A stretch of DNA of 64,000 nt from Candidatus Uhrbacteria bacterium CG_4_9_14_3_um_filter_41_35 (GCA_002791275.1 PFWT01000009.1:146548-210547); one strand, 5' to 3'. Positions 7,890 to 56,284 are shown, counted from the first letter of the stretch. The notes: generated by a model from the sequence alone, not told the origin. A program made the numbers and translations.

Positions 7890-7938
7890 TCTATTTTAAC
7901 ACAAAACAGGACTTCGTAGTCCTGTTTTGTTGAAAAGT

Positions 7939-8370
7939 TTAAGCTTCTTGCAATTCGTCTTCTGAAATTTTGTGGCCAACTGATGCGACAACTTCCCCGC
8001 CAACGATATATTCGGTTACTCTTAAAACAGTACCTTCGTTATTTTCAAATTCACGGTAAGAAATTTTATCTAGTTCCTCGCCATCATCTTTAATTTTTCC
8101 TGCAGTTTCATAAGAGAACTCATAATCGTCACCCCCGTAAACTGCTACATCAGATTCACCATCGATCTCCTCTTCAATATCGGTGAATAAAATTATTTCT
8201 TCTGCATCTTGGTCAAGTGACAGCCACATATCTCCACCATCCTTAATCCAAAAAACCTTTTCTCCGGTTTCCAAACTGACCTCGTCGATTTGACGTGTCT
8301 CAAAAGTAGTACCAGCAACAATAATCGGTTCTTCGTTTAATATTTTTTCTAATGCTTCTTCGATATTCAT
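7939..8370 (-). CDS. acidic hypothetical protein
   Basis: 143-aa ORF, highly D/E-rich, with no recognisable motif. Confidence 0.45.
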   Translation of the reverse strand: MNIEEALEKILNEEPIIVAGTTFETRQIDEVSLETGEKVFWIKDGGDMWLSLDQDAEEIILFTDIEEEIDGESDVAVYGGDDYEFSYETAGKIKDDGEELDKISYREFENNEGTVLRVTEYIVGGEVVASVGHKISEDELQEA

Positions 8371-16192: not shown

Positions 16193-17191
16193 CTACAACT
16201 CACGACTAAGTAATAATTCTGCTCCATCCCATAGTCGAGCGTCGTTGTTAACCTTTAAAAAATACCACCACTCTATACCCCACAAGTATACCTCATCTGC
16301 GCCAGTTCTTTTAGCGAAGACTAGATTCTCAGCTAAATTCTCAAGAGTAAACTCAGCGTAAGCTTTGTCTAAATTATTAGTTATTGGGTATATATAACTA
16401 CCTACACCCCAAGGCTCAGCCTGCAGTTCGGAAATTATAACCTTATCTACAAAAATATTAGCAACCCTGCGTTGAATATTGTACATAAGCGCCGTGTACG
16501 GAAAAATTATTTCACCGAAATTTTTGTCATAAACTTTTCGGTACAAACTCACCCCTAAAACGTCAGCCGGCAGAGCTCGCCAGACCCAAAGTGACTGTTC
16601 ACCACTGACCGTGAGTTGAATCGGCTTATCGTCCATTGCTCTAACTAGATTTATTTCGTTTTGAATCAAGCCAGGGTTTAGTTGTAAACATTTGCCGAAC
16701 GGAAAAAATGATTCATTTTCTATTTGCCATCTTTCAACATTTTCAGAATCCCTGTAACGATTAACAGTAGCCTCAATAAACTCCATTATTTCGTAATCAC
16801 GCTCTTGCTCCTGCATTTTTTCTGCCCAGTCGGGAATAAAACATTCTGGCCAACGTGGAACTTTTTGACCAATAACTAAGGTAAGTTTTAAGTCATTTGC
16901 CCTTGCAATTTCCATTATTTTGTCCATTTCTGTGTAATCGTAAACATTATTCACTCGTTCGATTTCCGACCAGTAAATTGGTACTCGATATTTTTTTATA
17001 CCAAGATCTGAAATTGAAGCCTGAAGTACCTCAATCGGATCAAGACCCAATTCTTTCGAGTAAGTAGTTGAAAGCGTTGCGCCTATTTCTAAATTTGTAT
17101 TATTATTTTTAAAAACCAAAACACTGATTGTTGTAAACATTAAAACAATCAAGGCAAATATTAGAGTAACTCTACCCCATTTTCTGTTCAT
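16193..17191 (-). CDS. membrane-anchored glycoside hydrolase (GH-A clan TIM barrel, GH5-like)
   Basis: N-terminal TM helix, IYWSEIE and WQIENE (NE catalytic-acid-type motif). The family assignment is tentative. Confidence 0.45.
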   Translation of the reverse strand: MNRKWGRVTLIFALIVLMFTTISVLVFKNNNTNLEIGATLSTTYSKELGLDPIEVLQASISDLGIKKYRVPIYWSEIERVNNVYDYTEMDKIMEIARANDLKLTLVIGQKVPRWPECFIPDWAEKMQEQERDYEIMEFIEATVNRYRDSENVERWQIENESFFPFGKCLQLNPGLIQNEINLVRAMDDKPIQLTVSGEQSLWVWRALPADVLGVSLYRKVYDKNFGEIIFPYTALMYNIQRRVANIFVDKVIISELQAEPWGVGSYIYPITNNLDKAYAEFTLENLAENLVFAKRTGADEVYLWGIEWWYFLKVNNDARLWDGAELLLSREL

Positions 17192-17239
17192 AAGCTGAGT
17201 GATACAGACTCAGGCCGCTATTTTGACCCTGAACCAGAC

Positions 17240-18811
17240 TTAAATCTCGTCCTTTTTTTCGCGCACAAAAGAAATCCAACTCTCTACAAAGCGAATAGCA
17301 ACTTTAAGCGGTGCTTCGATGATGAAATCGAAAAAATAAATAAAGATATTGATTTTTGAAACATTGTGCGAAAGCCAGCGCCCTGCGATCACAAGAGGCA
17401 ACATAAAGAAATCAAAAAGTGTGCCGATTAGTCCGCTACGGGCGTCTGAAAGCACAACTTCTTTGGTTGACATTCTAATTCTGATACCAAAGAAAGTAAC
17501 CAGCGAAATAAAGAAGAGGAAGAGAGCAACAGAAAGCCAGGTGAAATTAAAGCCAACCAAAACGAAGCCGATCAGTCCGTAGGTAAAGAGGTACATTAAA
17601 GTGTAGGTGAAGCCAAAAAGCTTTGACCAAGCTCCGAAGCTACTTGCCTTAACCTTCACATTCAAGAGGTCGTGATCAGCACTCACAGAAAGTGCCCGCA
17701 CAGCGCTCTGGTAGTCGGTGGTATTTTTTCGTTCCTTAATACCAATTGTCAAACCAATAACAGCCAAGAATAATGGGTGGAATAGGATATTTACAAGCAA
17801 CGGAGTTGCGCTAATTTCGCCATACATTACTAAATCATATGGTACCTCGAGCGCCAAAGCTAACAACATTTTAGTGAGGAACAAAAATAGCACAGCTCTA
17901 AGCACTGTTCTTTGTAAACGTTTTCTAAATACTGTTGTTCGTTTTTTTAACTGCCTAGCAACAGCGCGATCGAGTAAATCTGGGTCGTCGAGTAGCGCAG
18001 GAAATTGCTTTGGTTCTTGCTCAATCGTATCTCTAATTACTCTAAACACGCCAGCTTTTCGTCGTAGCAAGAGTGATAACTTTCCAGTAACCGGATGCGA
18101 AAGCTGTCGTTCGATCAAGGCAATAACCGACTTGAGGTTTTTTGTAATATCTTCTATTTGTTCACGATTTGATGCGCCTGGCCAATCCGGATAGTAAAGC
18201 GTCAGAACTCTAAAACGCAAAGTTGCCTGATTTGACCTGAGTAAAATTTGATGAATCGCAATATACAGCAATAAATCCTTATCCTCACTTGATAAAACAA
18301 TCCGCGGATCCCACTCAATTCTGGACCGCATTTCTTCGTACATATAACTCACCAGAGCTTCATCTCCAACTGGTGGTGTAATTGCGTATTCAACTTCTGT
18401 TGAGAGAACATCGATGACCCAGTTAAAGGCATCCTCGCGTTTTTCGCCAAAGTCTTCGGTGGCTCGAAGTAGTGGTTCGTACTTCATGAAAATCGGAATG
18501 AGCTCATCTATAAGACGCGCCGGCACCTCTTTATTTGGGAGATACCTAGCCCAAATCAGCTCGCGAAGTAAGTCGCCAGCCATATTTTCAATTGGTACAT
18601 CTGAACCAATATACCGCTTAATAATTCGCAAAATTGCGTTACGCCGCAATAAGTGCTCCTCCTGATAATCGATCGAGGTTCTGAGCTTTTCGTAAATTGT
18701 AGCAGCTGTGCTAGCCGGTGCGCTCACTTCAATCATTTCCTCCCCCGCACTTTCTCCAAAACCAACCGGCCTGGCCAGTTGCGCTGTAAGACGAGTTAAT
18801 TTTTCAGACAT
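17240..18811 (-). CDS. hypothetical membrane protein (large N-terminal soluble domain, C-terminal multi-TM region)
   Basis: 523-aa ORF with a hydrophobic C-terminal third and no motif I recognise. Confidence 0.5.
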   Translation of the reverse strand: MSEKLTRLTAQLARPVGFGESAGEEMIEVSAPASTAATIYEKLRTSIDYQEEHLLRRNAILRIIKRYIGSDVPIENMAGDLLRELIWARYLPNKEVPARLIDELIPIFMKYEPLLRATEDFGEKREDAFNWVIDVLSTEVEYAITPPVGDEALVSYMYEEMRSRIEWDPRIVLSSEDKDLLLYIAIHQILLRSNQATLRFRVLTLYYPDWPGASNREQIEDITKNLKSVIALIERQLSHPVTGKLSLLLRRKAGVFRVIRDTIEQEPKQFPALLDDPDLLDRAVARQLKKRTTVFRKRLQRTVLRAVLFLFLTKMLLALALEVPYDLVMYGEISATPLLVNILFHPLFLAVIGLTIGIKERKNTTDYQSAVRALSVSADHDLLNVKVKASSFGAWSKLFGFTYTLMYLFTYGLIGFVLVGFNFTWLSVALFLFFISLVTFFGIRIRMSTKEVVLSDARSGLIGTLFDFFMLPLVIAGRWLSHNVSKINIFIYFFDFIIEAPLKVAIRFVESWISFVREKKDEI

Positions 18812-18836: not shown

Positions 18837-19583
18837 TTAAAAGAAAGTTCGAGGACAAGAATCTTTAACTAGATCAAAAGCCTCTTCCGCCGTATCCACT
18901 ACCTGAAAAATATCCATATCTTCTCGATTAATGGTATCGAACTCTGCGTAAAGAACATCCTCAATCCACTTAATTAAACCACCCCAATATTCTTTACCAA
19001 CTAAAACCACCGGGACTTGAATTGCTTTTTTTGTTTGAATAAGTGTGAGAATTTCAAACAGCTCATCTTGGGTACCAAAACCACCCGGGAAGTAAATATA
19101 GGCTTGAGCCGAGGCTGCCAAAATCACCTTTCGGGTGAAGAAGTAGTAAAAAGCTCGTGATTTGTTCACAAATGGGTTTACTCGCTGTTCGTTTGGTAAT
19201 TGAATATTAAGACCAACCGAAACTCCGCCAGCTTCCGCAGCACCTTTATTTGCCGCCTCCATAATACCAGGACCACCGCCAGTTACTACCGTAAAGCCAT
19301 CTTGTGCCAATAAACGACCCATCTTCTCTGCTTCCTGATACCATCTGTTACTTGCCGGCAGTCGAGCCGATCCCATGATGGTCACCTCTTTGTCGAGGTG
19401 AGAGAGGAACTGAAAGCCTTCAACGAATTCAGACATTATTCTAAAAATCCGCCAAGTAATTTCAGACATTCTTGGCTCTGCGCCAGGTATTTTGAGATCC
19501 TTTTCTTCTTCCGTAAAAGGAATCCGGCAGATATTTACCTTTTCTATTTTTTTATTATTTGATTTTCCATTCATAATACTCAT
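18837..19583 (-). CDS. LOG-family (TIGR00730) nucleotide 5'-monophosphate nucleosidase
   Basis: VVTGGGPGIMEA, PGGFGTQDELFE (PGGxGTxxE). The start is uncertain because of the N-terminal extension. Confidence 0.7.
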   Translation of the reverse strand: MSIMNGKSNNKKIEKVNICRIPFTEEEKDLKIPGAEPRMSEITWRIFRIMSEFVEGFQFLSHLDKEVTIMGSARLPASNRWYQEAEKMGRLLAQDGFTVVTGGGPGIMEAANKGAAEAGGVSVGLNIQLPNEQRVNPFVNKSRAFYYFFTRKVILAASAQAYIYFPGGFGTQDELFEILTLIQTKKAIQVPVVLVGKEYWGGLIKWIEDVLYAEFDTINREDMDIFQVVDTAEEAFDLVKDSCPRTFF

Positions 19584-19671: not shown

Positions 19672-20190
19672 TTATCTAACAGCACTAATTGCTGTTGTAT
19701 TCTCTGACTCACAAGCGCCAACTGTAAGTGTGCCGTTTGCGTTCTTTGTAAGTGTGTAACCGGTTGTAACCGCATCCCAAGTCGCAAGCCCGTTTGGACT
19801 TACAGGTACAGCTCCAAGGTAACCCTGCGTTACGAGTGTAGTTAGATCAACACCACTGGTAGCACTAGTAACATTCACATCACAGTTTGTGTTGTTAACA
19901 TTGCAAGTTGTAGTACAGGTACCGATCATATAAACGTTACCAGCGATTAGCGCAGTAATAGCTGCGTCGTAGTCGCCACCATTGTCGACCTGATCGATTT
20001 TAGCTGCGTGCAAAACCTGAGTTACATCTGAGCTTCGTCGTGCGTCTCGTGCATCTCTGAATCGAGTTGCAGGGTCAAGAGCAACGAATACAATACCCGC
20101 CAAAATCGCGATAATCACAATCACGATTAAGAGCTCGAGCAGTGTAAAACCTTGTTCTGAATCTTTTAAGTTTTTAATCTTATTAATCAT
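19672..20190 (-). CDS. type IV pilin (candidate major pilin)
   Basis: Leader followed by the G|FTLLELLIVIVIIAILAG class III signal (E at +5). Cys pairs in the C-terminal domain and a strong terminator downstream. The ORF track extends the N-terminus to 20253. Confidence 0.7.
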   Translation of the reverse strand: MINKIKNLKDSEQGFTLLELLIVIVIIAILAGIVFVALDPATRFRDARDARRSSDVTQVLHAAKIDQVDNGGDYDAAITALIAGNVYMIGTCTTTCNVNNTNCDVNVTSATSGVDLTTLVTQGYLGAVPVSPNGLATWDAVTTGYTLTKNANGTLTVGACESENTTAISAVR

Positions 20191-20255
20191 ATTTTTAATT
20201 ATATTTAAATCTATTATATCAAACTTGACGTATATATCTAACAACCTGTGCACAA

Positions 20256-21242
20256 TTAAATAAAATTGTGATCTTTGCGGTATTTGTGCTTTTTCACCGA
20301 TCTTAAAGCAGCACCGATTGCCGAGCCGTAAATTTGCAATTCTTTTTCGCTTATATTAGGGATACTAATAACCGAACCTATGCGAATTACCTTACTATTC
20401 TTAATACTTTTATCACACAGTTCCGCAACATTTGGTTGCCCCCCTTCTACACCCGCAAATATAATAAATGGAATCGAGTAACCTGAATCACTAAAAAATT
20501 TATGTGCTTCCTTAATAGCTCCGCAAATTTTTAGAAGAACTTCTTTAGTAATCAGTTTAGTCTTACCACCACTTTTGTCAGCAAGCTTTCGGATTGCAAT
20601 AGATCTAGAAAAAACCGTAGCCCCGGCAATATCGTAAACTGTAATATTCGTCCACCTATGGCCAACATCCACAATCATTATCATCTGCGTATCTTCGGTA
20701 ATTGAAAATTCGTTTAGAACAAAATGGGCATAAAGTCTATCTACCGCCTTATTATTCGACTCAATAGCCACTAGCGGAAATTGCTCACTGGCAAATACTG
20801 TCTGAAGTGAATTCAAAATATCTTTCTCTACAGCCAGAACAGTATTCCTCACCCCTTCGCTTACCTTCGCTCCATCTTCAAAAGCAATAAATGCGTCCTT
20901 AAAAGGCATTGGAATATCCTCTTGTCCGCCTTCGATCATTTTAGCTTTTTTCTCCTCCTTTAACAGTTTTTCAGAAGACATTATAAAACTTGTTGAAAAA
21001 ACTCTTGATTCTGGGACTAAAATCGTAGTGTCTGCAGTTATATCTTGAATGCCGGACTTTACTAAAAGTTTCTTGATCTGTTCCTTGAGTTCCTTTGGTT
21101 TTTCAATTTTATCGTCAACAATGTAGCCTGGCGACAAGACAAGCTCATAAAGACCAACAGGTATTCCACTGTGGTTTACGTAGGCAATTCTAATATGGTG
21201 ATCCGAAACGTCAATTCCGATTCCTGATGAAAGTAATGGCAT
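20256..21242 (-). CDS. pilM: type IV pilus assembly protein PilM-like (actin/FtsA-like ATPase fold)
   Basis: GIGIDVSDHHIRIAYV N-terminus, a C-terminal IYGSAIGAALR and its position within the pilus operon. Confidence 0.55.
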   Translation of the reverse strand: MPLLSSGIGIDVSDHHIRIAYVNHSGIPVGLYELVLSPGYIVDDKIEKPKELKEQIKKLLVKSGIQDITADTTILVPESRVFSTSFIMSSEKLLKEEKKAKMIEGGQEDIPMPFKDAFIAFEDGAKVSEGVRNTVLAVEKDILNSLQTVFASEQFPLVAIESNNKAVDRLYAHFVLNEFSITEDTQMIMIVDVGHRWTNITVYDIAGATVFSRSIAIRKLADKSGGKTKLITKEVLLKICGAIKEAHKFFSDSGYSIPFIIFAGVEGGQPNVAELCDKSIKNSKVIRIGSVISIPNISEKELQIYGSAIGAALRSVKKHKYRKDHNFI

Positions 21243-21243
21243 A

Positions 21244-21714
21244 TTAAATTTCTTCCCAATTTGTAATTAAAACATTAATTGCATTTCCAAAATTGTTATA
21301 AACCAGAGCTGTGTTGACAACTAGATTTCTTGTTATACCCGCAACTGTTACAGCAACCGTAATAAGTCTTGTGCTTCCCCCACCAGTTACAGTAACCGTA
21401 CACACACCATTTCCGATAGTTGTAATCGTTCCACCAGTATAACCAATATTGTCCTTCAGTCTATAAATTGCCTCATCAACACAGGCTTCACCGATTTGAA
21501 TTGCCTGATGCGCCTGATCAGATTCTAGATTTAGCGAAAGTTCGTTTACACTAAATTTAGCAACAGCTAATCCAAGTGATAATGTCATTGCTAAAATTAC
21601 AACCACAACAAGTAGCGCAGCAACTCCGTGCTCATCTTTTTGGATAATCTTAAATTTATTTTTCAGGCTTTTCATCTGTTTAATTATAGAATTTTTCCTA
21701 GCGCACCACAACAC
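21244..21714 (-). CDS. PilX_N-domain minor pilin-like protein
   Basis: Hydrophobic N-segment GVAALLVVVVILAMTLSLGLAV followed by AHQAIQIGEACVDEAIYRL. An internal Met at 21675 is an alternative start. Confidence 0.45.
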   Translation of the reverse strand: MLWCARKNSIIKQMKSLKNKFKIIQKDEHGVAALLVVVVILAMTLSLGLAVAKFSVNELSLNLESDQAHQAIQIGEACVDEAIYRLKDNIGYTGGTITTIGNGVCTVTVTGGGSTRLITVAVTVAGITRNLVVNTALVYNNFGNAINVLITNWEEI

Positions 21715-22240
21715 TTGTTTGCATAGAGGTTGAGGTATTTATTAATACTCCTGATTTATCGCGCCACTCCAGTGTGAGATCTATTTTAATATTTGTTGTT
21801 CTGCCCGGAACACTTAGATCCGTGAAGACTAGACTGGTGACATTAACTAGGTCCGAACTTATGTTCATCGGCGCGCCAGCTCCCTGCTGAATGCGAACTA
21901 CACCGCCCACAACATCAAAAACTGTTGGGTCCAAACTCCCGGTATTATTCACGAGCGAAAGAACGCCGGGATTTACGCCAAAACTTGAAGTTGTGAAATT
22001 AACATCGTTTGCCGACTTAATTTCGCGCGCAATTTTTTCCATTATGAACCGACCATTTTGACTAACTTCGTGCATAGTTCTCGCCTTTTGACCGCTTTGG
22101 ACAACGCTAACAGTGAAGCCAATCATACTAGTAAAAAAGACGGAAATAATCGCAAGATATATAATCAATTCCACTAAAGTATTACCTTTTGTATTCGATC
22201 TTATCTTTTTTAGACCAGAACTTATAGCAAGAACATTCAT
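21698..22240 (-). CDS. type IV minor pilin (prepilin N-terminal domain)
   Basis: KG|NTLVELIIYLAIISVFF prepilin-type signal with a Glu at the conserved +5 position. 180 aa. Confidence 0.55.
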   Translation of the reverse strand: MNVLAISSGLKKIRSNTKGNTLVELIIYLAIISVFFTSMIGFTVSVVQSGQKARTMHEVSQNGRFIMEKIAREIKSANDVNFTTSSFGVNPGVLSLVNNTGSLDPTVFDVVGGVVRIQQGAGAPMNISSDLVNVTSLVFTDLSVPGRTTNIKIDLTLEWRDKSGVLINTSTSMQTSVVVR

Positions 22241-22241
22241 A

Positions 22242-25200
22242 TTATTTATAAGTTACGGTGATGTCATTAAATAGCGGTGGAGTAAGCGCACCTGTTGATG
22301 TAATAATCACCCGGTACTGGAAGTAGCGACCAGTTTGACCAGCCAAACTCACACCATCTGCGGTTGTGTAATCCGGTGAAAAAACTGACCAAGTACCATC
22401 AATAACCGGCGAATTTCCACTCCGCACCGCTACGGTAATTTCTGAATTAGCCGGCAAAGTTTCACTCCACGAGAGTGTGTCCCAAACATTTGAAGCAACG
22501 TCGCTGTCAAAAATTATTGATGTGTAAGTCCCGAGTCCTCCCACGGAACCAGCACCACCACCGATAATTTGCTCAAGATGCATAAAGAGTCCAGCATCAC
22601 CTACAATCCAACCATTACCCGAACTTGTCATTGAGATGTCGTTCAAATTAGTGGTAACCGGTGAAGTAAAGAGCGCCCAAGAGATGCCCTTGTACTGAAT
22701 TAAGGCTCCGGCATCCCCAACTGCCCAGCCGTCATCGAAAGCTGTTAAATTGATCGCATTAAGATTTGCAACTGTTGGTGAAGTATCCGTTGTCCAAGTT
22801 GTCCCGTTATAGATGAGGATCGTACCAGTTGCACCAACCGCCCAACCATCGGTGGCCGAAACCATATAGATATCGTTCAGTTGATTGCCAGTTGGCGATG
22901 TTACAGTGCTCCAGTTTGAACCATTGTAGTGAATAATGGTACCGCCTGCCCCCACTGCCCAAATATCGCCAGGACCAACCGCATAAACAGCCTGTAGGTT
23001 TTGTATTGTTGGTGAAGTAGTCAATACCCAATTTACACCGTTAAAATGTAAAATTATACCGCCGTTACCCACTGCCCAAGCATCCGCCGTATCTATTACA
23101 TCAACTGCGGTTAGATTGTTTACAGTTGGTGAAGACATTGTGGTCCAAACCCCCGTATCATTTTTTACAATCGTACCATTATCACCTACGGCAAAACCTG
23201 TTGTTTCATTAAAGAAATCAACCGCGTTCACGTTAACTGTTACTGGCGACGCGTCCACATCCCAAGCGGTACCAGCGTAACTATTGAGCGACCCTAGGTT
23301 GGCCACTGAGAAACCGACCGTATCTGAAACTAAATGAATACCATTGATATTTTCAGTTGTTGGGTTGTTGTAGCTAATTTTTATTGAGTCTAGGCTTGGC
23401 GTAATGCTTTGATTCAAGGTACTTAAAGTAACTTCATACTGCAGATACTGACCATTTAGCGAAGCAATTACTTCACCGTTTGGATTGGTATACGCACCAG
23501 CAAACGCTGACCAGCTACCGTCTGGTACTGGTGTTGCGCCAGTCCGAGTGTTAATCACAACATCCACTGCCCCCTGACCAATATCTTCAACCCAAGAAAT
23601 ATAATCCCAGTGAGTGTTTGGATCTAGACTGTTGATTATCGGAGAAGTGTAGGTACCGGTTAAGAAGTAAAGTCCTGTGTAGTGCACAAAGGTTGAACTC
23701 AGACCTCCGGCCCAGATATCGCTGCTATCCGCGATCGAAACTGAGTTAAGATCTGTCCCCGTTGGTGAACTCGCTTGTGTCCAAGTTAACCCGTCCCACT
23801 TTAAAATAACTCCATTGTCTCCCACAATCCAGCCATCAGTCGCCGAAACCATTTCGACATCCTGAAGCTCACTATTCGTTGGCGACGCCACATTTGACCA
23901 ACTTGTTCCGTCGTAGTGCATAATCGTGCCACTGCGACCAACTACCCAACCGTCTGTTGCAGAAATGAAATTGATAGCATTTAAGTTTTGACTCGTTGGT
24001 GTGCTCATTGAAGACCAGTTTGAACCGTTCCAATGCAGAATTCGACCACTTCGACCTGCAATATAACCATCTGTAGCCGAGATCATACTAACATCATTTA
24101 AACTACTACTGGTGCCTGAGTTAACTAAGGACCAAGAAATACCGTCATACGAAAGGATTTTTCCATTTTTTCCAACAGCCACTCCAAACGAGGAGCTGAC
24201 CATATCAACATCATAAAGTGTTTGTGAGGTTGGTGAAGTTGCAATTGTCCAGACCGAACCATTGTTTACTAAAATCTGACCCTCTTCACCCACCGCCCAA
24301 CCTTCGGTTGCTGATGCAAAATCAACTCCGTACATTTGTTTTTGTGTTGGAGAATTGATTTGCGACCAGCCATTATTTTCGTATTTAAACATTGCACCGT
24401 TTCGTCCCACAGCCCAACCAGTTGAACTATTAATCATACAAATATCTTCCACCGTATCGTTTCCAAGTTCAGCTGTGTAGTCACTCCAGTATGTTGGAAT
24501 AAAGTAGGTTGTTGCTGTCCAAACTGTACCATCATAATTTGCCACCATTCCATTTGCGCCAACCGCAAAGCCGGAAGAAGTGTTTTGCATTTTTACTCCA
24601 ATAAAATCCTCAGTCGTAAGCGTGGTAACTGTGTACCAATTACTTCCGTTATAGTGAAGTATCGTCCCTGAGTCACCAACAGCCCAAACATCATTTGTAG
24701 CAATAGCATATACGCCACGTAAATCATCATGAGTTGGTGTGTTTACACTCGACCACGAAGACCCGTTCCAGTGCCGAGCCGTGCCATTATCCCCAACAGC
24801 CCAACCGTCATTCGCCGAAATAAAGTACACATCTCTAAGTTTCTGTGAGGTGCCGCTTGAAACGTTTGACCAACTATTACCGTTCCAATGAATTATTTGA
24901 CCACTCTCACCAACAGCCCAACCATCTGTTGTTGAAAGCATATAAACTGCTGCGAAGTTTCTAGATGTTGGTGAGGAGATTTTTGACCAAGAATTGCCAT
25001 TGTACCGTAAAATTGTTCCATCCTCGCCAACTGCCATACCAAAACTTGAACTTACCATTGAAACACTTGCCAGATCTTCTGAGGTTGGCGAAGAAACCGT
25101 GCTCCAGGTTCCATTATAATTCAAAATCGTACCCGAATCACCAACCGCAAAGCCGTTATTTGAATCTATGAAATCAAGAGAATTTAAGTCACGAGTCGTT

Positions 25201-26885
25201 GGAGAAGATAAATCGATCCAATTTGTGCCGTTAAAATTTGCTATTGTACCAGAATCTCCAACACCCCAACCGCTTGTGTTACCAAGTATTTCAACACTGT
25301 TAAGATCATTTGAACCAGAGACGCCACTTGCACCTGTGCCGTCAAACAAACCAATCACCGGTATACTCGATCCCCCAACGAACCAGCCATTATTTTCGTC
25401 TAGCAGATAAACACTCTTTAGATCCTCACCAGTAACTGATGCCTGTGCTGTCCAGCTACTACCATTCCAGTGGAAAATATCCCCGTTATCACCAACCGCA
25501 ACACCAAAGTTAGCGCTCACCATTGATAAACCTCTTATATCAGGTGAACCTGAAATTTGCTGGCTAACCCACGAATTACCATTGTAAAAAATCATGGTTC
25601 CCGATCGACCTCCTGCCCAGACATGCGAGGCATCAACCGCATAAACCGTGTAAAGTCGTTGATTAATTGGATTTGATACCGAAATCCATAGAGAGCCATT
25701 CCAATTATACGTGTGCCCATTTCGATCAACGGCCCAAGCATTAGTTTCTGAAATTACTGAAACATCGTATAAATCAGAATTGGTACCAGAAGTAACCGCT
25801 GTCCAAACAGCTCCATTCCAGTGTTGAATTTCACCACCAGTTGCGACAATCCAGCCATCAGTCGGGCTTGAAAAATCTATCGCATTCAAATTTTTATTAC
25901 TTGCCGAGGGTATAGTACTCCAGCTAAGACCATTCCAGTGAAGTATTAGGCCGGAATCTCCAACCAACCAAACATCATTCACCGATTTAACATAAACTCC
26001 ATTTAAATCTGCAGTTACTCCACTTGCCACCTGAAACCAATTTGCACCATCCCACTTCAAAATTGAACCAGTATTTCCAACTGCATAGCCAAGATCTGCG
26101 GAACTCATGTGAATGTCATTTAACAAATCCGAGTTAGCAGCTGGCGGAGAAAATACTCCCCATTGTGGGGTATTGTTGAGTTCAATCGATGCTGTAGCTC
26201 CGGTTCTTGCTCGAACTGTGTCCGTGAAGGTTCCTGGATCAAAATCAAGATCGGTCGTATGAATTACCGACAGTCCTCCTCCAGGAATCCACCTGTCAAC
26301 GGCAAAGGATGTGTCTCCTGAAATTGTGAGTGATGCTGAATCGCCAGTGCCATTTATTACAATGTCCGTTGCCGTACCAGCGCTAAAATCAGTACTCGAA
26401 GTTTCGTGCCAATCAAAAACGTTCCAGTCGGTTAAATAAGTAACCGCCTGCACACTTCGCAGAGCGTTTCTGGCAGTCCAACTCACAACTGAAGTTACTT
26501 TTTTTGTACGCGGATCAATCTGCCCGCCGGTTGCCACGATATTATTATTCACATCCCGCTCAACACTTGAAATTGTAACCACACGAGTGTAAATATCAAC
26601 AATGTCATTTACACCACTAAACGCCCAGCTACCACCCGTGTTTGCCACGCCATGCGCACCGTCAATTAAGTTCAGCCAAGATTCATCGCGGATACTCCGA
26701 GCCGCTTCAAGTCCCTCCTGCGCTATAACCGTTGCCCGCACCTCTTCGTTACTGACGCCAAGCGAAACTAAACTATCAAGGAAAATTGTGCTCACAACCA
26801 AGGTTATGATACTAAAAATCGACATGGCAATAACTACTTCTGCCAAACTTTGACCTTTTTTATTTTTGAAAATTGAAGTAAACAT
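22242..26885 (-). CDS. giant prepilin-fused multi-beta-propeller protein (candidate pilus-associated adhesin)
   Basis: N-terminal KG|QSLAEVVIAMSIF prepilin signal. At least 26 tandem blades, each about 42 aa, with the motif t-SPT-x-DL-x-V-x(5)-GWAVGdsGtILhYNGsnWS, plus two copies of a roughly 90-aa non-repeat module. Translationally coupled to its flanking pilin genes. Confidence 0.85.
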   Translation of the reverse strand: MFTSIFKNKKGQSLAEVVIAMSIFSIITLVVSTIFLDSLVSLGVSNEEVRATVIAQEGLEAARSIRDESWLNLIDGAHGVANTGGSWAFSGVNDIVDIYTRVVTISSVERDVNNNIVATGGQIDPRTKKVTSVVSWTARNALRSVQAVTYLTDWNVFDWHETSSTDFSAGTATDIVINGTGDSASLTISGDTSFAVDRWIPGGGLSVIHTTDLDFDPGTFTDTVRARTGATASIELNNTPQWGVFSPPAANSDLLNDIHMSSADLGYAVGNTGSILKWDGANWFQVASGVTADLNGVYVKSVNDVWLVGDSGLILHWNGLSWSTIPSASNKNLNAIDFSSPTDGWIVATGGEIQHWNGAVWTAVTSGTNSDLYDVSVISETNAWAVDRNGHTYNWNGSLWISVSNPINQRLYTVYAVDASHVWAGGRSGTMIFYNGNSWVSQQISGSPDIRGLSMVSANFGVAVGDNGDIFHWNGSSWTAQASVTGEDLKSVYLLDENNGWFVGGSSIPVIGLFDGTGASGVSGSNDLNSVEILGNTSGWGVGDSGTIANFNGTNWIDLSSPTTRDLNSLDFIDSNNGFAVGDSGTILNYNGTWSTVSSPTSEDLASVSMVSSSFGMAVGEDGTILRYNGNSWSKISSPTSRNFAAVYMLSTTDGWAVGESGQIIHWNGNSWSNVSSGTSQKLRDVYFISANDGWAVGDNGTARHWNGSSWSSVNTPTHDDLRGVYAIATNDVWAVGDSGTILHYNGSNWYTVTTLTTEDFIGVKMQNTSSGFAVGANGMVANYDGTVWTATTYFIPTYWSDYTAELGNDTVEDICMINSSTGWAVGRNGAMFKYENNGWSQINSPTQKQMYGVDFASATEGWAVGEEGQILVNNGSVWTIATSPTSQTLYDVDMVSSSFGVAVGKNGKILSYDGISWSLVNSGTSSSLNDVSMISATDGYIAGRSGRILHWNGSNWSSMSTPTSQNLNAINFISATDGWVVGRSGTIMHYDGTSWSNVASPTNSELQDVEMVSATDGWIVGDNGVILKWDGLTWTQASSPTGTDLNSVSIADSSDIWAGGLSSTFVHYTGLYFLTGTYTSPIINSLDPNTHWDYISWVEDIGQGAVDVVINTRTGATPVPDGSWSAFAGAYTNPNGEVIASLNGQYLQYEVTLSTLNQSITPSLDSIKISYNNPTTENINGIHLVSDTVGFSVANLGSLNSYAGTAWDVDASPVTVNVNAVDFFNETTGFAVGDNGTIVKNDTGVWTTMSSPTVNNLTAVDVIDTADAWAVGNGGIILHFNGVNWVLTTSPTIQNLQAVYAVGPGDIWAVGAGGTIIHYNGSNWSTVTSPTGNQLNDIYMVSATDGWAVGATGTILIYNGTTWTTDTSPTVANLNAINLTAFDDGWAVGDAGALIQYKGISWALFTSPVTTNLNDISMTSSGNGWIVGDAGLFMHLEQIIGGGAGSVGGLGTYTSIIFDSDVASNVWDTLSWSETLPANSEITVAVRSGNSPVIDGTWSVFSPDYTTADGVSLAGQTGRYFQYRVIITSTGALTPPLFNDITVTYK

Positions 26886-27349
26886 TAGTTTCGGGTTATA
26901 GCTCCAGCTGGATTGACTAAGATTGTTTTTTTCTCCGCTGTTTCGTTTAATTCGACCGTAATCGTGGCCGGGGTCGAAGTGTTTCCGTGCGAATTATTAA
27001 ACAGCACATCTGCGCCCCCACCCTGAATTGTAATCTGAGACAAAGTTGTAGAATTTGGCAGGGTTGTTGTAACATTATCCGGAGCTCCTGGAATATAGGT
27101 AGTGCCTCGGTACAAAGTAAAATCATTAGCTGTAAAGTGCACACCCCAAACATCATTTTGACGACCATTCATAGTGTGCCACTCGGCGCGCCTCAGAGTA
27201 TCAACAACATCTGTTGAAACGTTTACTAAATCATTTCTGTTAACCGAAGAACTCATTACCAAGGCGCCAATCAAAACTATTATCGATGATAACGCGGTTA
27301 CTATCAGCGTTTCAAGTAAAGTAAAACCATGGTGATTTATGTTTTTCAT
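26885..27349 (-). CDS. type IV pseudopilin (GspH/FimT-like)
   Basis: HG|FTLLETLIVTALSSIIVLIG prepilin signal. Confidence 0.6.
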   Translation of the reverse strand: MKNINHHGFTLLETLIVTALSSIIVLIGALVMSSSVNRNDLVNVSTDVVDTLRRAEWHTMNGRQNDVWGVHFTANDFTLYRGTTYIPGAPDNVTTTLPNSTTLSQITIQGGGADVLFNNSHGNTSTPATITVELNETAEKKTILVNPAGAITRN

Positions 27350-27357
27350 AAGGATGA

Positions 27358-28512
27358 TTAAACACCCGACAAAATTGAATAAATTGGTGTCAGAATAGAC
27401 ATCGCCATAATCGCTACCACACCTCCAATAAATAGAAGCATAATCGGTTCCAAGATTGACGATAGGTTTTTTGACATCACCATCACCCGTTCTTCATAAT
27501 AATCAGCCAAAAACTCGAGTGTTGAACCTAAACTTGCAGATCTTTCACCAACCGCAACCATTCGCTGAATCATTTTTGGATATAGATCAGGGTACCGTTC
27601 AATAATTGCCGAAAATTCGCTACCGCCCGCTACCTGTTTCATCATATTCTTCACTGATTTTGCGTAAACGTAGTTTGGCATCACTCGCGAAGTAATATCG
27701 AGCGCCTCTTCGATCGCGGTTCCACTTTGCAGTAAGGTTCCAACAGTCCTACAAAAGCGAGCGCGATTGATAAGGTTTGTAAACACACCAACCACCGGGA
27801 TTGCTAAAAGTACTCTGTCAGTAATTGGACGCACCGCCTTTCGCCTTGAAAACCAAAGGAAAAACACGGTACCTCCGATTGAAGCTGGTACCACAATCGC
27901 GCCATAGGCCACGAAGAAATTTGAAACCCAGATCAAAATTCGGGTAGTAATCGGCAGTTCCACGTTCAAAGACTCGAAAATCTGGCTAACCTGTGGCAAC
28001 ACGAAAATTGCAATTCCAAAACCGAGCACAACTGCCATACTAAGTACCACGGAAGGATAAATCATAGCTGACTGCACATTTCGCTTTAAGCTAAGATCGC
28101 TCTCCATTTGTTTTGCTAAACGTTCAAGGTTTGCGTCGAGAGTCCCTGAGTTTTCTCCCACCTCCACAGCACTAATAAACGAAGCATCAAAAGTTTTCGA
28201 CTCAAATTTTAAAGCATCAGCAAAAGCTGAACCGCCCTGAACTCGACGATTTACCCGTTTTAACACCTTCTTGAGGGTCCCCACCGACTGCTCTGTGATT
28301 ACCTCAAGCGCTTCAGGCACCGAAAGACCAGCATTTAGCATAACCGCAAAGTGCTTCGAAACCATCGCTACATCGGTGGTTTTTACCTTACCTAAACTAA
28401 TTTCCGTCTTGTACCAAGGAAGTTTTCCTTCTTTTGCAACGACCCTGTTAAGGCTATTTTTTGTCGGACTATTATTCACTTTTTTTGTAATTGTTTTTGC
28501 CATATTATTCAA
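27358..28512 (-). CDS. pilC: type IV pilus platform protein PilC (GspF family)
   Basis: Two GspF-type repeats with 3 TM segments. Confidence 0.8.
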   Translation of the reverse strand: MNNMAKTITKKVNNSPTKNSLNRVVAKEGKLPWYKTEISLGKVKTTDVAMVSKHFAVMLNAGLSVPEALEVITEQSVGTLKKVLKRVNRRVQGGSAFADALKFESKTFDASFISAVEVGENSGTLDANLERLAKQMESDLSLKRNVQSAMIYPSVVLSMAVVLGFGIAIFVLPQVSQIFESLNVELPITTRILIWVSNFFVAYGAIVVPASIGGTVFFLWFSRRKAVRPITDRVLLAIPVVGVFTNLINRARFCRTVGTLLQSGTAIEEALDITSRVMPNYVYAKSVKNMMKQVAGGSEFSAIIERYPDLYPKMIQRMVAVGERSASLGSTLEFLADYYEERVMVMSKNLSSILEPIMLLFIGGVVAIMAMSILTPIYSILSGV

Positions 28513-29497
28513 TAATTCCGTCAGCTTGGAGTTGTTCTAAAACTTGTTTCATAGAAATCATTCCAAATTTTCGTCCGGTTTCGATAGCTGAACGTATAGT
28601 TGAAAGTTTGTTGTTTCTTATAGCATTCCTTACCGCCGAAGTTGAGGTTAAAATTTCCCTCGCAGCCATTCGTGTACCATCTTTCTTCATCACAAGGTGT
28701 TGCGATACAACCATTTTTAAGGCAGCTGATAGTTGAATTAAAATCTGTTGCTGCTTTGCGCCTTCAAAAACTCCCACAATTCTTTCTACAACTTCAGTGG
28801 CATTTGGCGAGTGAAGAGTTGATAAAACCAAGTGTCCAGTTTCCGCAGCTGTTAACGCTAGTTCAATAGTTTCCGGATCACGCATCTCGCCTATCACAAT
28901 TACATTCGGATCCTGCCTTAAAACGTGGCGTAAACCCGAGGCAAAAGTCTGAAAATCTGTCCCAAGCTCCCGTTGTTCAATAAGTGAATTACCTTTTTGA
29001 AAACGGTATTCAATCGGATCTTCGAGTGTAATAATGTGCTGTTTGTCAGTTTCATTGATGTGTTGAATCATTGTTGCAAGCGTAGTTGACTTTCCGGTTC
29101 CTGCCGGACCACTTAAAATAACCAGGCCACTTAGCTCACCGACAATATCTAAAATTTGCTGATCAAGTTCTATTTCTTCTGGCGTTGGCGGTTCGTTTGC
29201 AAAAATTCTTATTGAAAGCCCAAAACCGCCCGATTGTTTATGCGCATTAATTCGCAAAAATGTTTTACTCACTTCAAGACCAGTATCTACATCTCCAGTT
29301 TTCACCAATCTAGATTTTTGTTCAGCATTTAAAATTTTTCCCAGTATATTCTTTGCCTCAACCTGTGTAAAAATAGGCTTATCTATAACCGTCAGTTCAC
29401 CTTCAATTCGAAAATAAGGCGCTGATCCAACCACCAAGTGGATATCCGAGGCACCTTTCTTGAGCGCAAGTAATAGTATTTTTTTAAATTCCTCCAT
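28505..29497 (-). CDS. pilT: twitching-motility retraction ATPase PilT
   Basis: GPAGTGKSTT Walker A, VIVIGEMRD and 330-aa PilT-size ORF. Confidence 0.8.
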   Translation of the reverse strand: MEEFKKILLLALKKGASDIHLVVGSAPYFRIEGELTVIDKPIFTQVEAKNILGKILNAEQKSRLVKTGDVDTGLEVSKTFLRINAHKQSGGFGLSIRIFANEPPTPEEIELDQQILDIVGELSGLVILSGPAGTGKSTTLATMIQHINETDKQHIITLEDPIEYRFQKGNSLIEQRELGTDFQTFASGLRHVLRQDPNVIVIGEMRDPETIELALTAAETGHLVLSTLHSPNATEVVERIVGVFEGAKQQQILIQLSAALKMVVSQHLVMKKDGTRMAAREILTSTSAVRNAIRNNKLSTIRSAIETGRKFGMISMKQVLEQLQADGIIE

Positions 29498-29498
29498 A

Positions 29499-31187
29499 TT
29501 ATTCTTGAGTTACGCGCAAAACTTCTTCGAGCGTAGTTTCACCGGTTAATATTTTCTGTACCCCATCAAAAAGCATTGTGCTCATTCCCTGCTTAACCGC
29601 TATTTCTTTGACTTGATCGGCATCTTTATTACTCATTACCGCTTCTCTGATTTCATCTGTAACTGCCAAAAGTTCAAAAATTCCGGTTCGACCCTTGTAA
29701 CCTGTGTTTTTACAAATTTTACAACCCTGACCGTGAAAAACACGAATACCTGAAAGTGATTTCTTGCCGGTTACATCAGAAAAATATTTTTTTAAGTGCG
29801 GTAAATGGTTAATGGTTTTCAGTTCCTGCTCCGAAATATTCACACTTTTAATACAGTTCAAACAGATCCTTCTCACCAGTCGCTGGGCAATAACCACCAA
29901 AATTGTTGAAGAAACCAAAAAGTCTTCAACACCCATATCTTTAAGTCTTGGAAAGGCGGTTGCAGCGTCGTTTGTGTGTAAAGATGAAAAAACCAAATGC
30001 CCGGTCATCGCAGCGTTCACTGAGATATCTGCTGTTTCGCCGTCTCGAATCTCCCCCACCATAATAATGTCCGGATCCTGACGAACAATTGAACGCAATC
30101 CCTTGGCGAAAGTTAGGTTAGTTTTTGGGTTAACCTGAATCTGGCTAATACCATCAACATCATATTCAACCGGGTCTTCAATCGTGGCAATATTCACCTC
30201 GCGTTTGTTTAAAACCTTGAGCGCAGCGTAAAGCGTGGTACTTTTTCCTGAACCTGTTGGTCCAGTCACCAGGATCATACCCCAAGGTTTTTTGATAGCT
30301 TTTTTAAAAAGCTCAAAATGCGCCTCGCTTAAACCAAGATCCGTTAGGCTGAATTGACGAGTCTTCGCAGCAAGTAGTCGCATTACTGCTTTTTCACCGT
30401 TTGTGGTCGGCACAATTGACAAACGAATATCAATTTTGTCACCAAAATCGTTCGTATAGGAAATACGGCCATCCTGAGCTGCACGTTTTTCATCTGTCGC
30501 GAGTTTAGACAAAACCTTTAATCTGGTAATAACCGGGTCGTGAATTTTTTTAGGAAATTCTGCAATATCTTGCAAAATACCGTCGATTCTGAAACGAATC
30601 TGCGTAAACTCATCTTCGGGTTCAATATGAACATCACTAGTTCTAGTTTGATATGAATAATCAAAAATAGCATTAACAAGTTTTACAACAACTCCGTCCG
30701 AGTCATCGCTGTTTAAATCAGCGCCTTCGAGAATATTTTTAAAGGCAACCTTTGGATCTTTTTGAAAAAGGAATAAATTCGAAAGAATCTCACGTTCAGT
30801 TGAATAATAAAAAACCACCTCACGTCTTAAATATTTTTCAAGTAGAGCCTGTAAAGTAACGTCATGTGGGTTTGTAACTGCAAGGACTACCGAATCTTCG
30901 GTTTGTGAAATTGGCAGTAAATGTTTCTTTCGCGCAAAAGCTTCTGGAACTAAAAGAATAACATCGTCTTGTGGTTTTGTCTGTGCTGGATCGAAGTGCC
31001 GAACACCAAACCAAGACGCTACCAACTGACCAAGCTGGGCTTCGGTTAATGAACCATCTGAAACTAAAACACTGTCGATGCCTTTGGTTTTAGCACTTCG
31101 CGACTGCGCAGCTTTCATGAACTCCTCCCTTGTAACTCCACCCCCTTCAACCAGTGCCTCGTATAGTTGTTCTTTACTTAACACCAC
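29499..31187 (-). CDS. pilB: type IV pilus extension ATPase PilB (GspE family)
   Basis: GPTGSGKSTTLYA Walker A, Asp/His boxes and a C-terminal tetra-Cys motif CLNC..CKIC. Confidence 0.85.
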   Translation of the reverse strand: MVLSKEQLYEALVEGGGVTREEFMKAAQSRSAKTKGIDSVLVSDGSLTEAQLGQLVASWFGVRHFDPAQTKPQDDVILLVPEAFARKKHLLPISQTEDSVVLAVTNPHDVTLQALLEKYLRREVVFYYSTEREILSNLFLFQKDPKVAFKNILEGADLNSDDSDGVVVKLVNAIFDYSYQTRTSDVHIEPEDEFTQIRFRIDGILQDIAEFPKKIHDPVITRLKVLSKLATDEKRAAQDGRISYTNDFGDKIDIRLSIVPTTNGEKAVMRLLAAKTRQFSLTDLGLSEAHFELFKKAIKKPWGMILVTGPTGSGKSTTLYAALKVLNKREVNIATIEDPVEYDVDGISQIQVNPKTNLTFAKGLRSIVRQDPDIIMVGEIRDGETADISVNAAMTGHLVFSSLHTNDAATAFPRLKDMGVEDFLVSSTILVVIAQRLVRRICLNCIKSVNISEQELKTINHLPHLKKYFSDVTGKKSLSGIRVFHGQGCKICKNTGYKGRTGIFELLAVTDEIREAVMSNKDADQVKEIAVKQGMSTMLFDGVQKILTGETTLEEVLRVTQE

Positions 31188-31291: not shown

Positions 31292-31654
31292 CTAGATGTA
31301 AGATTTTATTTTTGCAACTACATCCTGAATTGATGCGTCTGACTTTACAATAAAATCTTTTGCACCAAGTAGTTTTGCTTTTTTAACATCTTCCTCTTGC
31401 CCTAGATTAGAAAGCACAATCACTGGAATTTTTTTAAGACTACTATCCTTTTGAATTGCCTCGAGCACGCTAAAACCGTCCAACTTAGGCATAATAAGGT
31501 CTAGTAAAACTAGCGTTGGGCTAATTTCTTTCATTTTTTTCAAACCCTCCTCTCCATTTAAAGAAAAATCCGCCTCAATTCCTTCTTTGTTTAGTTTTGT
31601 AGCATAAATCCTCGAAAGGAATTTATCATCTTCAATGATTAATACTTTGACCAT
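31292..31654 (-). CDS. single-domain response regulator (CheY-like receiver)
   Basis: IIEDD, the phospho-acceptor LLDLIMP, a KIPVIVLS block whose Ser is the conserved T/S and the conserved receiver Lys in FIVKS. Confidence 0.75.
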   Translation of the reverse strand: MVKVLIIEDDKFLSRIYATKLNKEGIEADFSLNGEEGLKKMKEISPTLVLLDLIMPKLDGFSVLEAIQKDSSLKKIPVIVLSNLGQEEDVKKAKLLGAKDFIVKSDASIQDVVAKIKSYI

Positions 31655-35046: not shown

Positions 35047-35916
35047 TTACTCTGGTCGATACTCTCGTTTGCAGGTTAAAATCCCCTCTTTATCTGAAAC
35101 CTGTAAATCGTACACTGTGGTGCAAGACTCGATTAATGTCTTATCGTTAACTGCAGTGTCTAAAATATAATAATTCCAAGTGCTATGCCCGTCTTCACCA
35201 AAACTATTTGAAATAAATGGCAAGCCTTCTAAATAGTCAGGGATAAACTTGTAGTCAAAACTTACGATTGGCACAGAAGTTACCTGTTCAAGTTTTAGAT
35301 CCTTATAACTTGATGAAATATTATAGATTTTTAGTTCCTGTTTACCCTGTTCAGCTATCAAATAAGTATTTTTAACTCCAGAACAAATTTCAAGGACACC
35401 ATCTAAACTTTTATTGTTTGCAAGTGCCTCAATTGCGTTAAAAAATCGCTCTGGACTTTGGACTACTCCTGATATTTGCTCTGCGATATCTTGCTTTTCA
35501 AGTTCTGTAAAACTTCGCGGGTCAACTGAACCAACATAATCCTTTGCGTTTACAATACTATTGAAAGATAAACACTCAGAGTTGCGCTTTTCCTCTCTCT
35601 CGGCTCTTTTGTTTGATAAATAAGTTTTGCGATCAGGTCCTGTACTTTCCTTAAAGTCAACTTTTGAAATAACCTGCGTAAAAGGATTCACCACTGCAAC
35701 ATTACTACTAAACACGGCCTCTGAAGCAATATATTTAAGTTCCTCCTCCAGCTGATTCTTCTGTTCGTCAACCGTTGGTGGGTTCCAGTAAAGTGCGTTC
35801 ATGACTACAATGAACATTAGAAAAATAATAAACAGAATCATGAACAGAATCGACAAAACTGTTCCGTTAAACTCGTGCTCGTGCTCAGGTGTGTGCTCGT
35901 GTTTATTTATTTTCAT
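35047..35916 (-). CDS. membrane-anchored hypothetical protein (His-rich N-tail, single TM, extracytoplasmic domain)
   Basis: HEHTPEHEHE N-tail and one TM helix. The C-terminal domain is weakly similar to the two paralogs downstream. Confidence 0.55.
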   Translation of the reverse strand: MKINKHEHTPEHEHEFNGTVLSILFMILFIIFLMFIVVMNALYWNPPTVDEQKNQLEEELKYIASEAVFSSNVAVVNPFTQVISKVDFKESTGPDRKTYLSNKRAEREEKRNSECLSFNSIVNAKDYVGSVDPRSFTELEKQDIAEQISGVVQSPERFFNAIEALANNKSLDGVLEICSGVKNTYLIAEQGKQELKIYNISSSYKDLKLEQVTSVPIVSFDYKFIPDYLEGLPFISNSFGEDGHSTWNYYILDTAVNDKTLIESCTTVYDLQVSDKEGILTCKREYRPE

Positions 35917-35919
35917 ATT

Positions 35920-36735: not shown

Positions 36736-36739
36736 AAAA

Positions 36740-56210: not shown

Positions 56211-56284
56211 TGGTTCCCGGACAGGGATTCGAACCCCGATTACCTGTTCCAGAAACAGGTGTCCTGCCTTTAGACGATCCAGGA
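56211..56284 (-). tRNA. tRNA-Gln (anticodon CUG)
   Basis: Folds by hand into a cloverleaf: 7-bp acceptor stem with U1:A72, D-loop GG, anticodon loop UUCUGGA, T-loop TTCGAAT, and an encoded CCA. Confidence 0.85.

Follow-up and report, generated by a model that had tools for sequence, protein, structure and literature searches.

We report a gene for an unusually large type IV pilin, hereafter the big pilin, in a stretch of 64,000 nucleotides from Candidatus Uhrbacteria bacterium CG_4_9_14_3_um_filter_41_35 (GCA_002791275.1 PFWT01000009.1:146548-210547), the whole of which is referred to below as the window. The gene lies among the minor pilin genes of a type IV pilus operon, and its product of 1547 amino acids (aa) joins an N-terminal pilin module to four predicted seven-bladed β-propellers of the Ycf48 type and two predicted β-sandwich modules. 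We propose, with a probability of about 0.65, that this protein belongs to the modular minor pilins, sits at the tip of a type IVa-like pilus and functions as a multivalent adhesin. A first-pass annotation, made by a model from the sequence alone, had suggested a pilus-displayed adhesin, and this is still the best reading for a protein that combines a prepilin with a stack of Ycf48-like propellers and is encoded within a type IV pilus operon.

The big pilin gene and its product

The 1547-aa open reading frame (ORF) reported by the first-pass annotation is present, on the minus strand, which the annotation had left unstated. The plus-strand frame over the same interval (22242-26885) contains stops throughout and was rejected. 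The encoded protein consists, in order, of the pilin module, three sets of seven blades, module A, a fourth set of seven blades and module B. It has a size of 164 kDa and a pI of 4.16, with 139 acidic versus 50 basic residues and a net charge of about -89; the strongly acidic character extends to each of its domains (pI 4.05-4.7). Gly, Ala, Ser and Thr together make up 40.5% of the residues, which is within the range published for exposed pilins (PMC11623550). The gene is translationally coupled to both of its neighbors, in agreement with the coupling noted previously. Upstream, the stop codon of the preceding gene overlaps the start of the big pilin in a TAATG at 26885, and downstream a TAA-T-ATG at 22240-22244 joins its end to the next pilin gene.

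The N-terminal domain is predicted to be a pilin

The big pilin begins with MFTSIFKNKKG followed by QSLAEVVIAMSIF, and the closing Gly of this leader precedes the predicted cleavage site of prepilin peptidase. The start of the product was likewise read as MFTSIFKNKKG followed by QSLAEVVIAMSIFSIITLVV. The Pfam family N_methyl matched aa 7-31 with 21.9 bits, just above its gathering score of 21.2, and the Glu at position +5 is E16. We aligned 73 N-terminal sequences, taken from the 11 full-length homologues closest to the big pilin and from another 61 relatives; G11 (Gly-1) and E16 (Glu+5) are both at least 90% conserved in this alignment. The class III prepilin signal with Glu at +5 that had been read from the sequence is thus confirmed.

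The structure of the N-terminus was predicted by AlphaFold2 using the 73-sequence alignment. The model has a predicted local distance difference test (pLDDT) score of 96-98 over aa 11-150 and shows a single long helix (aa 14-68) followed by an antiparallel sheet (aa 76-152), which together form the helix-plus-sheet lollipop. The modelled domain is nearest to minor pilins of the GspK, GspI and PilV types. A Foldseek search with this model returned no significant match, and the N-terminal profile retrieved only weak pilin-helix matches, Geopilin and PilA (E 0.026-0.12), from PDB sequences; these results suggest that the pilin module is divergent. The first-pass annotation had named an ordinary signal anchor as the finding that would speak against its proposal. 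We rejected such an anchor because AlphaFold2 gives a pilin fold and because Gly-1 and Glu+5 are conserved, and we conclude from the model that the N-terminus of the big pilin is a genuine pilin.

Four predicted seven-bladed propellers and two predicted β-sandwich modules

The blades were counted with a hidden Markov model (HMM) built from the big pilin's own blades. It found 28, each with an E value between 1e-9 and 1e-22. Their start-to-start spacing is 38-40 aa, for a period of 39 aa (117 nt in the DNA) in place of the 42 aa estimated in the first-pass annotation. The blades fall into four groups of exactly seven, parted by gaps or modules and 33-42% identical to one another, and the sequence is predicted on this basis to contain four seven-bladed β-propellers. 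The previous estimate of at least 26 blades, enough for three or four propellers, is corrected to 28 blades in exactly four sets. In a Pfam scan of the protein, PSII_BNR (Ycf48-like) matched nine stretches with an E value of 6.3e-38, and no BNR, Reg_prop, Sortilin or other propeller repeat family reached significance. Of the suspected likeness to Ycf48, BNR and Reg_prop repeats, it is therefore the Ycf48 part that stands. When the propeller region was compared with PDB sequences by phmmer, no structure of Ycf48 was retrieved and the one match was irrelevant (E 2e-4). The propellers are assigned to their family because the Pfam and NCBIfam profiles match.

Modules A and B are about 100 aa each and 35% identical, and a Gly-rich linker (aa 1439-1448) precedes module B. 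The two copies described in the first-pass annotation, as a module of roughly 90 aa, are thus real and slightly longer. A Pfam scan of 29 module copies gave no significant family. AlphaFold2 predicted module B as an all-β domain with a pLDDT of 95.4. Its fold neighbors (scores in parentheses) include the discoidin-like domain of DDR1 (8.3), ligand-binding domains of ephrin receptors (7.7-7.8) and CBM32 modules (7.4-7.5), as well as the discoidin domains of neuropilin and factor V/VIII. The predicted fold of the module is that of a galactose-binding-domain-like jelly roll, a type used in ligand recognition. When the module profile was used in a word-indexed search for homologues, only 7 short fragments were retrieved, a result that has no bearing on how widely the module is distributed.

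The big pilin is encoded in a type IV pilus operon

All genes of the operon are on the minus strand, in the order CheY-like regulator, PilB, PilT, PilC, 154-aa pilin, big pilin, 180-aa pilin, 156-aa pilin-like protein, PilM and PilA-like pilin (Table 1). Pfam profiles T2SSF (5e-56) and T2SSE (2e-47) matched the motor and platform genes PilC, PilT and PilB (27358..31187). Four minor pilin genes, H154-BIG-J180-K156, are contiguous beside the assembly genes, and the big pilin occupies the I position. The absence of Glu5, as seen in the 156-aa protein, is a trait of GspK. The leader of this protein reads …DEHG/VAALLVVVV, and gene callers start it 13 codons later, which gives 143 aa. A stand-alone CheY-like response regulator (31292-31654, minus strand) lies directly upstream of pilB, and at the homologous loci L001 and L003 the same place is taken by histidine kinases and two or three CheY-like regulators. 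This arrangement suggests that the pilus is under two-component control of the PilG/PilH kind.

Table 1. Features of the big pilin and of the pilus operon. Positions are those of the window; aa numbers are those of the big pilin.
Feature	Position	Strand	Description and basis
Big pilin ORF	22242-26885	minus	1547 codons, 4644 nt
Prepilin leader, aa 1-11 (MFTSIFKNKKG)	26853..26885	minus	sequence; N_methyl; G11 conservation
Pilin module, aa 12-155	26421..26852	minus	predicted hydrophobic α-1 helix with E16, then antiparallel β-sheet; GspI/GspK-like minor-pilin class
Linker motif 1, aa 160-190 (T-x-TDF-x-GT...G..AS..L)	26316..26408	minus	predicted β-hairpin; motif HMM
Linker motif 2, aa 208-238	26172..26264	minus	second copy of the hairpin motif, about 30 aa; motif HMM
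Propeller 1, aa 250-509	25359..26138	minus	7 blades, last truncated; blade HMM
Propeller 2, aa 523-792	24510..25319	minus	7 blades; 42% identical to propeller 1
Propeller 3, aa 808-1073	23667..24464	minus	7 blades; blade HMM
Module A, aa 1074-1173	23367..23666	minus	putative β-sandwich, galactose-binding/discoidin-like; fold taken from the module B model
Propeller 4, aa 1174-1438	22572..23366	minus	7 blades; holds the best PSII_BNR stretch
Module B, aa 1449-1547	22245..22541	minus	C-terminal β-sandwich (predicted)
PilB	29499-31187	minus	NCBIfam PilB 7e-156
PilT	28505-29497	minus	pilus motor gene
PilC	27358-28512	minus	pilus platform gene
Upstream minor pilin, 154 aa, GspH-like (G/FTLLE)	26885..27349	minus	Pfam N_methyl and GspH; NCBIfam ComGD hint
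Downstream minor pilin, 180 aa (G/NTLVE)	21698..22240	minus	Pfam N_methyl; weak HpsC, ComGF; GspJ/ComGF position
Pilin-like protein, 156 aa (G/VAALL, no Glu5)	21244..21714	minus	sequence; GspK position
PilM-like assembly protein	20256..21242	minus	Pfam PilM_2 5e-10
PilA-like pilin (G/FTLLELLIV), probable major subunit	19672..20253	minus	N_methyl 2e-9; GspG, GspH and ComGC-type matches

The repeat region is the same in independent assemblies

We explored the possibility that the array of blades was expanded, collapsed or chimerically joined in assembly, a concern raised in the first-pass annotation, by examining other assemblies and the identity of the repeats. The PilB of the window is identical to PIZ54038.1, from a metagenome-assembled genome (MAG) of Candidatus Uhrbacteria, and the assemblies compared were those with contigs carrying a PilB identical to that protein. 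The same 4644-nt gene was found with 0 mismatches in five further assemblies, among which are both MEGAHIT and SPAdes-style contigs, obtained from different samples. In a sixth assembly the contig stops within the gene, and the first 576 codons agree with 1 mismatch. The identity between DNA copies of the blades is just 60-74% over stretches of up to 69 nt, and no array was detected in the gene by Tandem Repeats Finder. The ORF is moreover intact and coupled on both sides, and homologues have the same seven-blade units. The one observation in favor of an artefact comes from the NCBI scaffold PFNS01000106.1 (GCA_002792095.1), which breaks at codon 12 (window position ~26850; L031 12560 onward) into a run of N and then carries on with unrelated genes (Polysacc_deac_2, TsaD). 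It is because of this scaffold gap that the exact protein is absent from the protein collection and the NCBI annotation of that MAG. We regard an artefact as extremely improbable.

P0308, which was reached through the PilB cluster as a possible cargo variant, proved to represent the same genome, in which a different start had been called. The 16 genes compared are all 100% identical, and the comparison thus holds no information on selection.

A conserved slot for variable cargo

A search with the full-length protein retrieved 11 proteins that have the pilin module, blades and β-sandwich modules alike, at 26-55% identity. The other 75 matches were unrelated multi-propeller proteins of the Ycf48 type, such as cytochromes and proteins sorted by the type IX secretion system (T9SS). 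We next scanned a single genome from each species with the alignment of the pilin module, which yielded 24 loci. Fourteen of them are titled as Patescibacteria (Paceibacter/Paceibacterota, Uhrbacteria, Magasanikbacteria, Saccharibacteria, Parcubacteria or "Patescibacteria group"), and the titles of the remaining 10 are uninformative or doubtful, for example "uncultured Gammaproteobacteria". The gene order PilB-PilC-GspH-like-BIG-pilin180-p156 was observed in 24 of 24 loci as far as the contig reaches, usually with PilM and PilA-like genes after p156. Two further loci, fetched through homologous proteins, have the same order. The comparison of homologues proposed in the first-pass annotation therefore found adjoining pilus genes at every one of the 24 loci identified by the pilin module.

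The pilin-module profile was also searched against 1.84 billion cluster representatives. It matched 613 of them at E<=1e-30, and with the threshold at E<=1e-10 the number was 4263. The match is N-terminal in all of the best 150, whose lengths range from 195 to 2414 aa. At least three Ycf48-type blades are present in 36 of the best 148 matches, mostly in numbers of 7, 14, 21 or 28. Among the same 148 there are 111 proteins of at least 450 aa, and in 98 of these the β-sandwich module is the exact C-terminal end of the protein. This placement of the module is a hallmark of the family. In members without Ycf48-type blades the slot is filled by Laminin_G_3, Lectin_like/DUF4082, CBM_4_9 or LVIVD-propeller domains. 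The variety of domains in one slot points to a carrier that is conserved and to cargo that is exchangeable and mostly lectin-like.

The locus L003, from a Candidatus Paceibacter relative, has two peculiarities. A gene of the 23S_rRNA_IVP family (7898-8284) is situated between pilB and pilC, and the called start of the big pilin at this locus (P0007, 10001-13444) takes in a second 23S_rRNA_IVP domain about 120 aa upstream of the leader. This start was probably mis-called.

The propellers may be nested within split β-sandwiches

When modelled without the modules, the two linker motifs appeared as hairpins of low confidence, with pLDDT values of 60-73 for motif 1 and 46-55 for motif 2. Motif 1 may constitute the first strands of a sandwich that is completed by module B, and motif 2 may similarly pair with module A. 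We wrote the architecture of 45 complete propeller-bearing relatives as strings in which a motif is an opener, "(", and a module is ")". The strings are balanced in 20 of the 45. The big pilin reads "( ( 21b ) 7b )", six relatives read "( ( ( 7b ) 7b ) 7b )" and L005 reads "( ( ) 7b )". In the remaining 25 the modules outnumber the openers, by exactly one in 24 cases and by two in P0183, and an excess of openers was seen in none. In several members inspected of the P0008-P0010 subfamily, a divergent first segment (WTQT[DN]WSGG.GQ..WSD) that escapes the motif HMM is found at the place of the missing opener. The motif directly abuts the module in P0011 and L005. In four relatives a unit of motif, propeller and module is inserted into a set of seven blades and splits it 2+5. 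The 2+5 splits include P0008, P0211, P0212 and L024 8200-12465, and a 3+3 split is found in P0005 and P0167. The split blade sets look like the result of a domain inserted inside a propeller.

The balanced strings, the abutting motifs and the split blade sets suggest that a hairpin and a module may form one sandwich. From these sequence patterns we tentatively propose, with the odds somewhat against it, that the propellers could be nested insertions in split β-sandwich scaffolds rather than beads on a string. Hairpin 2 and module A would then enclose propellers 1 to 3, and hairpin 1 and module B would enclose all of that together with propeller 4. This arrangement would lead the chain back to the pilin head and make the C-terminal module a conserved socket. 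The confident folding of module B without its hairpin limits this proposal. If it is true, this Patescibacteria-wide family of tip pilins would be a cassette system in which adhesive cargo is swapped in a fixed scaffold, and host range in the Candidate Phyla Radiation (CPR) could plausibly be determined, at the genetic level, by which propellers, lectins and CBMs are swapped in.

Proposed function and alternative explanations

We propose that prepilin peptidase would cut the big pilin after Gly11, following its insertion in the membrane. The 144-aa pilin module, which is GspI/GspK-like and has Glu5, would join the neighbors in the GspH, GspJ and GspK positions in a priming complex, and this minor-pilin complex would prime pilus assembly and then cap the fiber. 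The strongly acidic C-terminal cargo of about 150 kDa would sit at the tip; since it would be far wider than the pilus shaft, the tip is the only place possible for it. Here we follow the steric argument made for PilB of Streptococcus sanguinis (PMC8179133). The four propellers and two galactose-binding-like sandwiches would most likely bind a host or partner cell by its glycans or surface proteins, and the cell would be drawn onto its target as PilB and PilT extend and retract the pilus. Cleavage, the location at the tip, the role as an adhesin and the class of ligand are all predictions in this sense, and the lectin, CBM and propeller cargo found in the same slot elsewhere supports the adhesin logic.

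Several observations weigh against the tip-adhesin proposal. The +1 residue of the big pilin is Gln instead of the usual Phe or Met, and the modelled pilin module is not assignable singly to the GspI or the GspK class. No Peptidase_A24 (prepilin peptidase) was found among the ORFs of the window that were scanned. A tip of about 160 kDa would have to cross the cell wall or an S-layer, and the source organism is uncultivated. To our knowledge, no lectin activity has been established for propellers of the Ycf48 type. Finally, the deletion of pilX2, the gene for a propeller-bearing minor pilin of Nanosynbacter lyticus TM7x, only halves host binding (PMC11623550).

The big pilin might instead be a surface protein that uses its pilin signal and helix only for export and anchoring, or one that is mounted on a short pseudopilus. 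The substrate-binding proteins with class III signal peptides in the archaeal bindosome and the pseudopili of type II secretion provide likenesses for such an arrangement, in which the array of propellers would be displayed on the surface of the cell or in the contact zone, and not at the tip of a long pilus capable of retraction. We consider this unlikely. The presence of PilB with PilT in the operon indicates a retractile system, and a PilA-like major pilin is encoded there as well. In every related genome the gene is inside the four-gene set of minor pilins, Glu5, which is conserved, is characteristic of subunits docking into a fiber, and PilX2 of TM7x behaves as a part of the pilus (PMC11623550).

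The propeller array could also be catalytic or nutrient-capturing, as a GH74-like hydrolase or a binder of soluble substrates would be, and the pilus would then be a scavenging device. Seven-bladed propellers of the Ycf48/BNR type also occur in pairs in glycoside hydrolases. The fold neighbors of the module, which include CBM32 and other accessory domains of glycosidases, and a weakly glycoside hydrolase-like gene at 16193-17191 downstream of the operon are consistent with such a function. However, no glycoside hydrolase or other enzyme family was matched in Pfam or NCBIfam, and the sister proteins in the same slot bear lectin or CBM cargo and not enzymes; we find this explanation quite improbable. 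A role as the DNA receptor of a competence pilus, like ComZ of Thermus or ComP of Neisseria, appears very improbable, as the low pI and acidic excess of the protein and of all its domains argue against DNA binding and no DNA-binding family matched in Pfam or NCBIfam.

The locus bears on how ultrasmall Patescibacteria locate and retain their hosts, for which genetics are available only in Saccharibacteria. We know of no cultured member of Candidatus Uhrbacteria. With one slot and one conserved pilin module, found in hundreds to thousands of cluster representatives, and with adhesive cargo that would differ by lineage, the conserved slot may offer a way to predict which genes of uncultured CPR genomes serve in host recognition. 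The comparison across genomes may be more useful here than the single gene, and the big pilin itself supplies defined domains for binding assays.

Other features of the window

Downstream of the pilus operon, the minus-strand region 16193-18811 encodes a 332-aa protein with weak GH10/GH42/GH5 matches and a 523-aa protein without a family match; a gene of the LOG/'lysine decarboxylase' family (18837-19583) stands between these and the pilin genes. Three tandem genes at 35047-37585 (minus strand) encode proteins of 289, 271 and 281 aa with N-terminal membrane anchors and no Pfam match, the second and third of which are weakly related (E 1e-12). Nearly all genes are on the minus strand and the GC skew is negative throughout. 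The sparsely used plus strand has a 718-aa ORF without a Pfam match at 58426-60582. Housekeeping genes of the window include those for a class II ribonucleotide reductase (ATP-cone and TSCPD domains), UvrA/B/C, a MurE-like ligase, PBP2, GlmS and iPGM. There is a single tRNA-Gln, at 56211, and no tRNA or other RNA feature in the window is relevant to the big pilin.

Comparison with known systems

The big pilin shares with Ycf48/Hcf136 the PSII_BNR repeat family, the seven-bladed propeller and blades of about 39 aa, whereas Ycf48 is a single-propeller protein of the thylakoid lumen. The NCBIfam equivalog for Ycf48, PRK13684, scored 128 bits in 5 partial stretches against a cutoff of 326, and identity with the equivalog was ruled out on this ground. 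The likeness is one of fold and repeat only and not of function. We take IPR028203 to be a Ycf48/Hcf136-like entry. A single protein with the architecture IPR012902-IPR028203 is present in Dataset S1 of Raynaud et al. 2021 (PMC8179133). No description of a multi-propeller Ycf48-type pilin was found among the matches listed in the literature on Ycf48 with pilins or on modular pilins with Patescibacteria.

The PilY1/PilC tip adhesin of diderm type IVa pili is comparable to what we propose for the big pilin in being large, tip-associated and provided with a β-propeller, in being encoded with core minor pilins, and in its roles in adhesion and priming. PilY1, however, is not a pilin; it docks on the minor-pilin complex and its propeller is of the Neisseria_PilC family, for which the big pilin gave no Pfam match even at E<=1. 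Since it lacks this domain and is itself a pilin, the big pilin is not a PilY1. In the GspI-GspJ-GspK tip complex of type II secretion pseudopili (3CI0, 5VTM), GspI continues for about 85 aa after the helix and bears no cargo, and an α-domain is inserted in GspK. The presence of PilT and of a PilA-like major pilin in the operon argues for a pilus and not for a secretion pseudopilus.

By combining a pilin module (aa 12-155) and non-pilin domains in one polypeptide, the big pilin belongs with the modular pilins. These are widespread, with 264 architectures and many CPR examples, and the most extreme of those cited has 860 residues (PMC8179133). Within S. sanguinis, PilB (vWA), a tip-located modular pilin adhesin, and PilC (ConA-like lectin) consist, like the big pilin, of a pilin module with one or more grafted functional modules, and modular pilins share a tip location predicted on steric grounds and an adhesive function (PMC8179133). 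The big pilin differs from the published examples in its 1547 aa and six extra domains, in modules that may be nested rather than appended, and in a GspI/GspK-like pilin module within an H-I-J-K gene set.

A close parallel by description is PilX2 of TM7x, a minor pilin with one seven-bladed propeller of RCC1 type that is needed for efficient host binding; PilX1 of the same organism bears a lectin-like jelly roll (Grossman et al. 2024, PMC11623550). Like the big pilin, PilX2 is a Patescibacterial minor pilin with an N-terminal lollipop and propeller cargo, is encoded among other minor pilins, and has been proposed as a tip adhesin (PMC11623550). It has one propeller of RCC1 repeats and no predicted PilD signal (PMC11623550), in contrast to the four Ycf48-type propellers, two predicted β-sandwiches and canonical G/xxxxE of the big pilin. 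The first-pass annotation had viewed a pilin anchor fused to propellers as an unusual alternative to a separate PilY1-type tip protein, a view that does not hold given the wide occurrence of modular pilins (PMC8179133), the propeller pilin of TM7x (PMC11623550) and the 613 cluster representatives with the pilin module. The big pilin is instead an unusually large, extreme example of a design already known, while the family-wide pattern of carrier and cargo, together with the possible nested topology, exceeds what we found described. The adhesin-on-a-pilin solution of TM7x would thereby extend to Candidatus Uhrbacteria, in extreme form.

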